DNA of 64,000 bases from an uncultured bacterium (GTDB lineage: Bacteria; Oederibacteriota; Oederibacteriia; Oederibacteriales; Oederibacteriaceae), in NCBI GenBank assembly GCA_965112635.1, contig OZ218778.1, positions 1,344,001-1,408,000 on the forward strand, read 5' to 3'. The notes beneath the pieces were generated by a model. The model was given only the letters and a program-made list of their open reading frames with translations. It did no database searches and was not told the DNA's origin. Both the position numbers and the translations under genes were made by a program. Positions 16,681 through 64,000 of the stretch are shown in pieces (positions within the stretch are counted from its first letter, which is position 1; each line of letters begins with the position of its first letter).

Positions 16681-17027
16681 TGGTGGAGGCGGTGGGAATT
16701 GAACCCACGTCCGAGTTTCATTTCATCAAAGCATCTACAAGTTTGTCCTTTGATTTGGCCTCTCGCAGAATAAAGCTCCCAAAGGCAAGATCTTTATCCT
16801 ACCAGCCCTGTTCAATCTCGTTTTTGCTTGGGAAGGTACCCTTCAAAAACCAGCCTGCTCCGGTCACTTTTCTCCCCCCGCAGGCAGGAAAAGAAAGTGT
16901 AGCCGCTTTTAAGCGGCTAGTGCTAATTCTTGATTAGCAGTTATGTTTTTCCCACCTTTTAACGAGCGGATGGGTGCTCGACCTGCTTCTTTGATTGCCT
17001 GATACCCGTCGAAACCTTTTCGCCCCC
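16681..17027 (-). ncRNA. ssrA: tmRNA; tag reading frame 16938-16909 encodes ANQELALAA*
   Basis: Minus strand starts GGGGGCGAAAAGGTTTCGAC and ends GGACGTGGGTTCAATTCCCACCGCCTCCACCA; resume context ATAACT-GCT; tag ends ALAA-TAA. Confidence 0.97.
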
Positions 17028-60400: not shown

Positions 60401-61183
60401 ATGACTTCTTTGATCCATCCAACGGCGATCATCCATGAAAAAGCAAAGATAAGCGAGGGGACCCAGGTGGGACCCTTTGCCGTGATCGGTGAACATGTCA
60501 CGGTAGGGTCCCAATGCGTGGTGGGGCCCCATGTCGTCCTGGATGGTTGGACCACTGTAGGCGACAACACAGAGCTCGGCGTGGGAGCCGCGATCGGTGG
60601 CAAGCCCCAGGATTACCACTACCTGGGCGAGGAGACCCGCGTCGAGATCGGCAGCCATTGCGTCATTCGAGAGTACGCCACGGTGCACCGCGGGACCGTC
60701 AAGGGTGGCGGGGTGACCCGCATCAGCGACAAATGTTATATCATGGCCTATGGCCATGTGGCCCATGACTGCCAGCTCGCCGAAGGGGTGCTTATCGCCA
60801 ACGGTGTGGCCATGGCCGGGCATGTGACCCTCGAAAAGTACGCCAATATCTCGGGTCTGGTGGTGATCCACCAGTTCGCCCGGATCGGGGAATACTCCAT
60901 GGTCGGCGGAGGCGGTAGGGTCAGTAAGGATATTGTGCCCTACGCTATGGCGGTGGGCAGCGATAATATGCACATCGTCAATGTCAATCTGGTGGGGCTG
61001 CAAAGGCACGGGTTTACCAAAGATAAGATCAACGCTTTAAAACAGGCGTTTAAACTGCTCTTCCATTCAGAATTGAACGTGACCCAGGCCCTGGAAAAGA
61101 TCAAAAAAGAATTAACCATGACCCCGGAGATAGCGCATTTGTGCGAGTTTATTGATAATTCCACGAGGGGCATCATCGTTTAG
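60401..61183 (+). CDS. lpxA: Acyl-ACP--UDP-N-acetylglucosamine O-acyltransferase
   Basis: IHPTAII, PQD, IREYATVHRGT, HVAHDC and IHQFARIG motifs. Confidence 0.97.
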   Translation: MTSLIHPTAIIHEKAKISEGTQVGPFAVIGEHVTVGSQCVVGPHVVLDGWTTVGDNTELGVGAAIGGKPQDYHYLGEETRVEIGSHCVIREYATVHRGTVKGGGVTRISDKCYIMAYGHVAHDCQLAEGVLIANGVAMAGHVTLEKYANISGLVVIHQFARIGEYSMVGGGGRVSKDIVPYAMAVGSDNMHIVNVNLVGLQRHGFTKDKINALKQAFKLLFHSELNVTQALEKIKKELTMTPEIAHLCEFIDNSTRGIIV

Positions 61184-61261
61184 GGTGGTCGATGGAAGGT
61201 AGAACAGAAAGTTCTACATAAATTCCCTGGCAAGGATAAGCATTATTAAATAAGGTCTGGT

Positions 61262-61298
61262 GGCGGCGTAGCCAAGCGGTAAGGCAGAGGTCTGCAAA
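61262..61298 (+). pseudogene. 5' half of tRNA-Cys(GCA), truncated at the end of the anticodon loop
   Basis: GGCGGCG-TA-GCC-AAGCGGTAA-GGC-A-GAGGT-CTGCAAA gives acceptor strand, D arm, anticodon stem 5' strand and loop. The next bases are TTCTT rather than ACCTC; no T arm or 3' acceptor strand follows. Confidence 0.85.
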
Positions 61299-61378
61299 TT
61301 CTTAAAGCCATTTTTTGATAGTCTCAGGAGATTAAGCCTTTTTGTTTTCCTGTCTAATCTTTATGCGATTTTTCTCGT

Positions 61379-61418
61379 ACACCAAGAGACACCAAAAAAC
61401 ACCTACCGGTGCCAGGAG
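61379..61418 (+). repeat. Four phased 10-bp imperfect direct repeats
   Basis: ACACCAAGAG-ACACCAAAAA-ACACCTACCG-GTGCCAGGAG. Confidence 0.65.
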
Positions 61419-61661
61419 ATGGCAATTTTTGGACACTGAAATTTCATTTCCTTAACTAATAAGATTTATCCGTCAAATGTAGAAGACCTAGATAAGACCA
61501 TTCATTTTATCCCTGTAAAATAAGAAAAAAGGTACCTGTTTTTCAGGGTCTGCTAATTGAGAATTAACTTGCTATAAGGATAATACGGGAATAAACTTCC
61601 TTTATCTTTTAAAAGAGACAAAATGGCAGTTTCAAAACTAAAAGAGATCGGGTTTTAGCCG

Positions 61662-63362
61662 ATGCGGAAAATGGAAAAAGTCTTTTCTGGAAAATATCTT
61701 TCCCCAAAAAATCCCACCAACAAACAACTTTTCTTTTTTGGTTTTGTAATTTTTTTTCTTTTGCAATTTACCATCCTTAATATCTTCGCCGATATAGCCA
61801 CTCCCACACCTATCTATATCACTGCAACAGCAACAATAGCACCGACAAATAGCAATACGTTCACAGTTTCCTATACCTTTACAAATACGCCCACGCTGTC
61901 TGTCACGTTTGCGCCTCTGCCTATAAAAATTTCTATAAAAGGGGAAACTTCGGAAATCACGGGGACAACCAACGGTTCAATTGTTAATCCCTCGGTAGGA
62001 CCAGTTGGAACGCTTGTTGTGAATGGCACAGGTTCGGTTAATTTCGCTCCAGCCCAGGTAGGAGATGGAGTTTACTTTACTCAGGGTGGCCAGCAAAACA
62101 GTAATACCGCTTATTATAAATGGACCGGGGCCCAAATTGGAGATATCTTTAATTTTAATATGGACCCGGGGGAAATAAATTTTTATTTAAAATCCAATTA
62201 CAGTTTTGCCCAAAGGCAGGCGCTGCCTAGACATAATAGAAGAACCGTTTTTACGGTCAAAGATGATAGTCAGATTTTATTTACTTTCAATACTGAAGCG
62301 GATCCAGAAGTTGGGAGATTGGTTTTAACTTACCAAACTGGGGGGACAAGTCAGCAAACTTATTATATTCCTGCAGGGCAAGAAGACGCATTGTTTGGAC
62401 AGGGAGTAATTTTAAAAGTAACTTTGGATTGGAATGGGTCTAACAATAATTTATATTTAAATGATAATTTAGTCAGCTCCCAGTCCTATTCCATTGCGAC
62501 GAGTAACTGGACTGCGAACTCAATGTTTTGTTTTGGCGCTGATATTGACCCAAATTATGGCCCGGGTTGGTCCTCTTGTGATGATATAGTGGATGAGTTT
62601 AATTTAGCTATATTTAAAACACCAAAATATTTTATGGATCATGTAGCAGTCGAGTTTCAAAGTTCAGCAACCGAAGCGCAAATGGCTCAAGTTGCCGCCG
62701 CTCATCAATGTGAACTTGAACCAGTCCCGGACTCAGTTGTTCAATATAACATCAGAAGACTCAAGCTATTATCTCCCCAAGATATTCATACTCTGGTTGA
62801 TCAGCTAAAAACAGACCCCTTGGTTCTATATTCAAGTCTTGATTATATGGTTGAGTCTTATTTAACACCTGATGACCCATGCTTCAATTCACAGTGGGGC
62901 TTAAATAAAATTAAAGCACCAAATTCTGGCTGCGGCTGGGAAATTTTAGGGACCGGAGATTCAAATGTAACTATAGCAATTGTAGATACTGGTGTTGATC
63001 CCAACCACCTTGATCTAACGCCTAATCTAATCATGCTTCCTGGAGCAAATTTTGTACCATCCGCTCTTAAAACACCTCCGTATACCACTAGTTTTGCAGT
63101 TGATGATAATGGTCATGGTACGCATGTTGCCGGAATTGCTGCAGGGGTGGGAAATAATCATAATGGAATTGCTGGGACTGCATGGAATTGCAAGATATTA
63201 CCAGTAAAAGTGCTTCCAGCAAGTGGTGGATACCCTATTGGTTATCAATCTGTAAGCCATACATTAGTTTGTCAAGCAATAAAATTTGCGGCTGATCAAG
63301 GGGCAAAAGTTATCAATTGCAGCTTGGGATGTGTAGTGCCCACGATATTTCTTCCGGCTTAG
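61662..63362 (+). pseudogene. S8 subtilisin-family peptidase, C-terminally truncated by an IS
   Basis: Signal peptide, Thr-rich linker, beta-rich domain, prodomain, then IAIVDTG (Asp) and HGTHVAG (His). The ORF ends just after VINCSLG and lacks the GTSMA (Ser) motif. Confidence 0.82.
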
Positions 63363-64000
63363 CCAGCTAGGGAAGTCGACCGCAGAGGGGTTTGTAACCC
63401 ATATGCTACGACTTGCCGGACAGCAGTAACGCCATCCTTGAAAACAACTAGAGCCTTTCTGACGCCGTTTGACGCCTCCAATGTATCCCTTTGCATCTCA
63501 GAATGCAAGACGCTCATCTTTGGTCTGATGACTTGTGCCAGGCCGTACGCCTCAAGTAGGTCGTAGACGGCGATGCGCCAGGCATAATGCAACTGCCTTT
63601 TAGTCATACCGGGACGCTCAACATCACGCATGGCAGCCTTAGCGCGTGCGTAGAACTCATCCCTTGTGACGCGTTCTTGCCAGTGAGGCATCGTGCGGTG
63701 GAGACATGAGGCGGTTTGATATCCCTTAGATGCGCGCAAGCGACCATCGTCCAGCGTGTGGATGGCCTGGAACAGCCTGGTTTGCGCTTCCAAGAGATTC
63801 GTGAATATCACCCCCTTTCCGAGTTGGGATTCGGCTTTGAGTTCGCCGAAATATCTTTCAACAGCGCCGTTGTCCTGGGCGCAGTAAGGCCGGGACGGCA
63901 GGGCAATGACCTTATGCCTGGCCAAGTAGGACAGGACAGCATCACTGCGATACGCTGAGCCGTTGTCAGTCATCCAAACCAGAGGCAGGCCGTTCGTCTG
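63332..64000 (-). mobile_element. Insertion sequence with DDE (rve-type) transposase, IS481/IS3-like; continues beyond window
   Basis: Junction at TGTAGTG (63332, or 63330) coincides with loss of subtilase similarity and a rise in GC. Confidence 0.7.
63359..64000 (-). CDS. Transposase, integrase core domain (5' end outside window)
   Basis: LVWMTDNGSAY and RPYCAQDNGAVERYFGELK carry the second Asp and the Glu of a DDE triad; frame is open to the window edge. Confidence 0.85.
   Translation of the reverse strand, partial: QTNGLPLVWMTDNGSAYRSDAVLSYLARHKVIALPSRPYCAQDNGAVERYFGELKAESQLGKGVIFTNLLEAQTRLFQAIHTLDDGRLRASKGYQTASCLHRTMPHWQERVTRDEFYARAKAAMRDVERPGMTKRQLHYAWRIAVYDLLEAYGLAQVIRPKMSVLHSEMQRDTLEASNGVRKALVVFKDGVTAVRQVVAYGLQTPLRSTSLAG

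Follow-up and report, generated by a model that had tools for sequence, protein, structure and literature searches.

A truncated tRNA-Cys gene and its intact counterpart

The stretch of DNA analysed here (the window, 64,000 nucleotides, positions 1344001-1408000 of C1, the only contig of a 2.88-Mb genome) contains, close to its end, the beginning of a tRNA-Cys(GCA) gene on the plus strand that stops after 37 nt (61262..61298), exactly where the 7-nt anticodon loop CTGCAAA (61292..61298) ends, and this raises the question of where the missing half is and what interrupted the gene. The half gene lies outside coding DNA and other tRNA genes, 78 bp past the stop codon of lpxA (60401..61183, plus strand, NCBIfam lpxA equivalog over cut-off) and 363 bp ahead of the next long ORF. 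Directly 3' of it TTCTT is followed by AT-richer DNA, the GC content passing from 0.61 to 0.37-0.41 across the junction. TTCTT had been described as an imperfect mirror of GAGGT, which at the DNA level is poor, with 2/5 Watson-Crick pairs, or 4/5 when G-U pairs are counted; the pentamer has CTT in common with the true 3' strand of the tRNA, ACCTT. Within the 78 bp that separate lpxA from the half gene is a 7-bp hairpin lacking a U tract (61200-61218). As previously reported, the last 2.7 kb of the window held no tRNA-Cys 3' half, and ARAGORN called no tRNA in the whole window, its sole result being a tmRNA gene on the minus strand (16681-17027, tag ANQELALAA).

The intact gene is located past the window end. 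A tRNA-Cys(GCA) recognized by both ARAGORN and Rfam (67.8 bits) occupies genome positions 1427047-1427121, on the same replicon and strand as the half, which corresponds to positions 1-37 of its 75 and is 100% identical to them (BLAST E 5e-13), confirming the view of a clean 5' half ending after CTGCAAA. The first 15 nt and the last 15 nt of the half each occur at these two sites only in the 2.88-Mb genome, and together with one upstream T at 61261 the direct repeat measures 38 bp, at a spacing of 21,785 bp. The two copies cease to match immediately after the loop, as in anticodon-centred (A) sites. Tyrosine integrases acting at such sites use the anticodon loop as strand-exchange overlap, on which basis CTGCAAA would be the 7-bp overlap of the left att core. 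The preliminary description had foreseen a matching 3' half downstream, found almost letter for letter, and an adjoining integrase, and a tyrosine integrase is indeed encoded next to the intact tRNA-Cys.

With default settings this is the one tRNA-Cys among 48 tRNA genes in the genome, and no unlinked second copy, as had been envisaged, was found; a BLAST of the intact gene against the genome returned only the gene itself and the half fragment at E below 0.4. An intron-containing tRNA-Cys at 483342, called only with the intron search on, and two further tRNA-Cys calls, obtained only at a relaxed threshold giving 120 genes, were discarded, as they had no BLAST match to the real gene. When the flanks were joined in silico to mimic excision, a whole tRNA-Cys and a tRNA-Val were recovered, and the closed island circle held no tRNA. 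The tRNA-Cys is whole in both the integrated and the excised state, so that there is no on/off recombination switch. Two of the earlier proposals fail on these results: the gene is not left unrepaired, since ARAGORN and Rfam detect it whole while the island is integrated, and it is not intact only after excision, being whole also in the in-silico excised chromosome. The proposal that stood is that of a reversed polarity in which the element provides a 5' half at its far end, the intact gene being 21,785 bp downstream and beside the integrase.

Islands in tRNA genes usually carry the 3' half of the gene. Here the host-side fragment is instead a 5' half, with the complete gene standing at the integrase end, which implies that attP carried a 5' half; the half after lpxA is the displaced host original, and the other 5' half was supplied by the island. 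We therefore describe the locus as a 21,785-bp integrase island bounded by two identical tRNA-Cys 5' halves, an anatomy to which we assign a probability of about 0.93, and likely inserted in reverse orientation. Read directly from the sequence are the 38-bp repeat, the uniqueness of the intact gene, host genes on either side of the island and a predicted integrase/excisionase/repressor module at its tRNA end. In the mechanism that we propose, the attP of the circular form would consist of a promoter, the tRNA-Cys 5' half and the loop, and the integrase would exchange strands across the 7 bp of the anticodon loop, the element entering in the orientation opposite to the usual one. Integration would strand the host 5' half after lpxA and rebuild the sole tRNA-Cys at the integrase end, where the gene, probably together with tRNA-Val(GAC), would have constitutive transcription from a modest promoter located in the 102 bp that follow the integrase gene. 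Loss of repressor activity would turn on expression of xis-int and lead to excision of the island, which would restore the order lpxA-tRNA-Cys-tRNA-Val-thrS with a whole tRNA. With the step of the local promoter included, the account is probable.

Island content and state of the integrase

The island runs from window positions 61299..64000, its first 2.7 kb, on to genome position 1427083, and its GC content is 0.484 (0.456 without the insertion sequences), whereas the 10-kb flanks have 0.532 and 0.537. On the right, the intact tRNA-Cys is followed by tRNA-Val(GAC) (1427202-1427278) and thrS (1427359-1429137). We consider this flank host DNA because tRNA-Val(GAC) precedes thrS in other loci of the phylum as well (4/29, one of the four having also a tRNA-Cys). 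The interval between tRNA-Val(GAC) and thrS contains a strong long hairpin (-33 kcal/mol in a 60-nt window, 1427275-1427330), a possible terminator or repeat element.

The first cargo gene encodes a secreted S8 (subtilase) peptidase (61662..63362, plus strand), whose 3' end is cut off by an insertion sequence ending at 63320, the Pfam PF00082 match covering only profile positions 2-119 of 288. The insertion sequence is the first of two IS481-like copies (window 63320..64000, genome 1407320-1410545, minus strand; genome 1414521-1417746), 3.2 kb long and 92% identical, with three overlapping ORFs that include two rve-type transposases of 611 and 387 aa, the longer scoring just under the NCBIfam cut-off. 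Both copies are inside the island, the rest of the genome having none. With 4 kb of cargo between them the pair resembles a composite transposon, no target duplication was seen at either, and besides the S8 peptidase gene a sortilin/BNR-repeat gene is broken by insertion. Further on is cargo for secreted and outer-membrane proteins, with an SBBP-repeat protein that has a sorting domain and a PorV-family gene (1418424-1421815), which look derived from the host lineage, judging from paralogous DNA (65-83% matches) at several other sites of the genome, and two pairs of genes that we read as toxin-antitoxin-like (1422282-1424048). Two ORFs of the island (222 and 323 aa) gave no match in Pfam, NCBIfam or PHROGs.

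The integrase end contains an XRE repressor and an M78/IrrE-like protease (1424133-1425367, minus strand), divergent from an excisionase-like gene of the HTH_17 type, xis (1425524-1425838), which is on the same strand as the integrase gene. A promoter-like site with perfect sigma-70 consensus precedes xis (1425435-1425462) and is bracketed by a 7-bp inverted pair (1425421-1425479), a possible repressor operator. The ImmR/ImmA-type module of ICEBs1-like elements comprises an XRE repressor and an M78/IrrE-like metalloprotease transcribed away from the excisionase gene, an arrangement that the island pair shares. Unlike ICEBs1-like elements, the island has no identified conjugation genes, and its xis and int are on one strand with one predicted promoter. 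No conjugation/relaxase, replication or phage structural gene was found among the island ORFs scanned (17 with Pfam, 13 with NCBIfam and 10 with PHROGs, small ORFs being only partly covered), so that by the genes of these ORFs the island is neither an ICE nor a prophage and its movement between cells would need a helper.

The integrase (369 aa, 1425835-1426944, plus strand) matches PF00589 with 84 bits against a cut-off of 27, while the best Xer and integron models reach 45-76 bits against cut-offs of 220-371; its stop codon is 102 bp ahead of the intact tRNA-Cys, on the same strand. The full catalytic set of tyrosine recombinases is R-K-H-R-H/W-Y. R207, K234 or K236, H314, R317 and Y349 are present in the protein, and Asp340 occupies the H/W position; the activity of the enzyme is uncertain because of this replacement of the second catalytic His. 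Across 151 integrase proteins this position holds His in 114, Asp in three and other residues in six, 28 being unparsed. The alignment scans returned almost only relatives of 21-34% identity, with just two above 45% (one of 50% and a 216-aa piece of 47%), both without genomic context, and a single-protein scan of genome contigs for close relatives found nothing.

The His-to-Asp change, together with the insertion sequences in two cargo genes and the lack of identified transfer genes, would be expected if the island were a grounded relic, with a dead integrase and an integrase end kept solely because an essential tRNA takes its promoter and 5' half from it. The frames of int, xis, repressor and protease are nonetheless all intact and the att repeat is 100% identical, and the same Asp in the relative of 50% identity (P0002) suggests a trait of the subfamily rather than decay. 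We thus hold it unlikely that the island is such a relic.

The inner ends of the island have two sequence features in common. A 14-bp word at 61331..61344 recurs as an inverted copy 37-24 nt upstream of the intact tRNA-Cys (genome 1427010-1427023), a length reached in 0/300 shuffles; such sharing is expected if the two ends once formed one attP, and the word is a candidate site for an accessory (DNA-bending) protein. Three HU/IHF-family genes are present in the genome, and the two copies show 0 and 1 mismatch to a loosened IHF consensus. The reading as an IHF site was set aside and is now a guess, matches to the consensus being common (11 in 3.2 kb vs 8 by chance; 63 in 20 kb vs 50 by chance). 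A spaced motif, ATGGCAA-N4-TGGACACT, at 61419..61437 (plus strand) recurs as a direct repeat immediately behind the int stop codon (genome 1426953); the genome has only these two matches, an equal 15-of-19 match arising in 17/300 shuffles, which is marginal, and it is a candidate arm-type integrase site. Word and motif would both fit leftover attP arms.

Transcription of the rebuilt tRNA-Cys

The sole tRNA-Cys is severed from its native upstream DNA, and the promoter that now serves it likely belongs to the island. The 102-bp gap between int and the tRNA contains two weak promoter candidates, with -10 boxes ending 65 and 16 nt ahead of tRNA-Cys, the better being mid-range among the tRNA upstream regions of the genome and not exceeding shuffles (p about 0.19). 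The native region upstream of the stranded half scored lower (p 0.67), with no convincing site; the matrix behind these scores derives from 19 tRNA upstream regions of this same genome and is a rough guide. Control of the tRNA by the element, as proposed earlier, is hypothetical, although the DNA ahead of the gene is that of the island.

Transcription could also come from further away. According to a second account of the same island, the sole tRNA-Cys would sit behind the island's switch, as the last part of an xis-int transcript under repressor control, and be read mainly by read-through from that promoter or from a promoter overlapped by arm sites, its supply following induction or being tuned by integrase binding; jointly with this, arm sites and the site of the DNA-bending protein would overlie the local tRNA promoter. 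The perfect-consensus xis promoter, predicted to be strong, is 1.6 kb upstream, the better of the two local candidates coincides in part with the spaced arm-like motif, and read-through is possible because no hairpin below -18 kcal/mol (60-nt windows) was found between the xis promoter and tRNA-Cys. Against it, one weak terminator-like site is present within int, and read-through from the xis promoter would normally be repressed; an essential single-copy tRNA would need a high and steady output, and xis would have to stay off for the island to persist. Moreover, in 3/10 same-strand relatives a near-consensus promoter, absent in the other 7/10, ends 8-10 nt ahead of the tRNA, and these dedicated promoters sit downstream of the arm-like repeats. 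Although we find this second account of tRNA supply improbable, were it true the integrase end could be deleted only by clean excision. A local constitutive promoter is favoured for the rebuilt tRNA-Cys, a step that we infer. Our literature search on element-supplied tRNA promoters gave no paper, a result bounded by the search wording that does not imply absence from print.

Reversed islands in relatives and in the same genome

Among 185 loci of distant integrase relatives, which are nearly all of 21-34% identity, include many near-copies and are not independent, a tRNA gene was found just past the integrase stop in 81, on the opposite strand in 62 and on the same strand in 19, the present island included; it was upstream in one locus and absent in 73, and 30 loci were too short. 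In 5/11 same-phylum same-strand cases (three tRNA-Ser, one Gly and one Met) a 5' fragment was located 20-37 kb upstream on the same contig; in 4/11 it was on another contig, one of these four being weaker as it was found with a different Gly query, and in 2/11 there was none. The DNA retrieved around the remaining seven same-strand loci contained no 5' fragment. In a quick tree of 66 integrase proteins the layout label, taken from the gene layout and mostly unverified, changes eight times, at least six of them forced by well-supported branches, which suggests that elements switched repeatedly between supplying one side of the tRNA and supplying the other, the whole gene staying at the integrase end. 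One clade of the tree comprises five genera of a single family whose reversed islands occupy tRNA-Ser(TGA), with a 5' fragment of 39-40 bp and no clear sigma-70 promoter ahead of the rebuilt tRNA.

The same genome harbors a second reversed island, of 57.5 kb, at tRNA-Pro(TGG) (C1:961335-1018867). Its 39-bp 5' half, with one mismatch, precedes the whole gene by 57,456 bp, its integrase ends 11 bp ahead of the whole tRNA, and a 21-bp repeat is present at both inner ends. The integrase is 25% identical to that of the tRNA-Cys island and falls elsewhere in the tree.

The genomes of relatives offered no empty site among those examined: none of 40 belonged to the same family, no lpxA locus had a tRNA within 1.5 kb (0/29), and no non-self tRNA-Cys/Val locus had lpxA, thrS or the integrase within 1.5 kb (0/19). 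In four public sequencing runs, each holding 5-13% of the sampled words and with no RNA run among those listed, no read or contig crossed 61298, and contigs identical to the genome were about 3x deep. The pieces that cover the half tRNA-Cys differ from it at one base and, if of sufficient length, continue upstream into foreign DNA, likely deriving from other organisms. The absence of crossing contigs would suit a misassembly at 61298, an assembler jump across the tRNA repeat, which we regard as very improbable: the genome is a single contig, 96.9% complete and 0.1% contaminated, the break is exactly at the loop end and the inner ends have sequence words in common, host flank and island both have 100%-identical pieces in one and the same run, and the same anatomy recurs in five relatives. 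A decayed tRNA-Cys duplicate unrelated to integration would account for the missing 3' half only and is scarcely credible given zero mismatches over 37 nt, the sharp end at the loop and the correct Islander configuration with an integrase within the interval.

Relation to known islands and significance

The layout had been presented as rarer than it is, since the island is a further member of a known, catalogued minority class, the reversed or 5'-fragment one. Table 1 of the Islander article (Hudson, Lau, Williams; PMC4383910) counts a 5' fragment in 159/3,919 islands, about 4%, and that article places 2,083/3,919 islands at the anticodon-centred site A. As far as the article defines the class, members have a whole tDNA and a same-strand end fragment, the 5' fragment being upstream, a tyrosine integrase inside and a length within 2-200 kb (PMC4383910). 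Applied by hand, fragment and strand, upstream position, integrase and length (21.8 kb) all agree for the tRNA-Cys island, and relative to that definition nothing differs in kind, the particulars being the sole tRNA-Cys as target and a divergent integrase with Asp. Recombination with the 5' side was termed "considerably less frequent" in a passage of PMC6563490 citing Zhao and Williams (2002), where CalSub-E1 of "Ca. C. subterraneum" is given as the lone exception among 39 tRNA-targeting elements. In that element, too, recombination involved the 5' part of a tRNA gene, the differences being the archaeal host and the tRNA-Ser target (PMC6563490).

The tRNA-Cys island hence adds one case, mapped with precision, to an integration mode that is rare yet catalogued, with a divergent integrase targeting tRNA-Cys, and two distantly related integrases produced reversed islands in one genome. 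Its significance would be greater only if tRNA-Cys output followed the regulatory state of the island. For the host, having its sole tRNA-Cys cut from the native upstream DNA means that the integrase end is likely indispensable as long as the island stays integrated.
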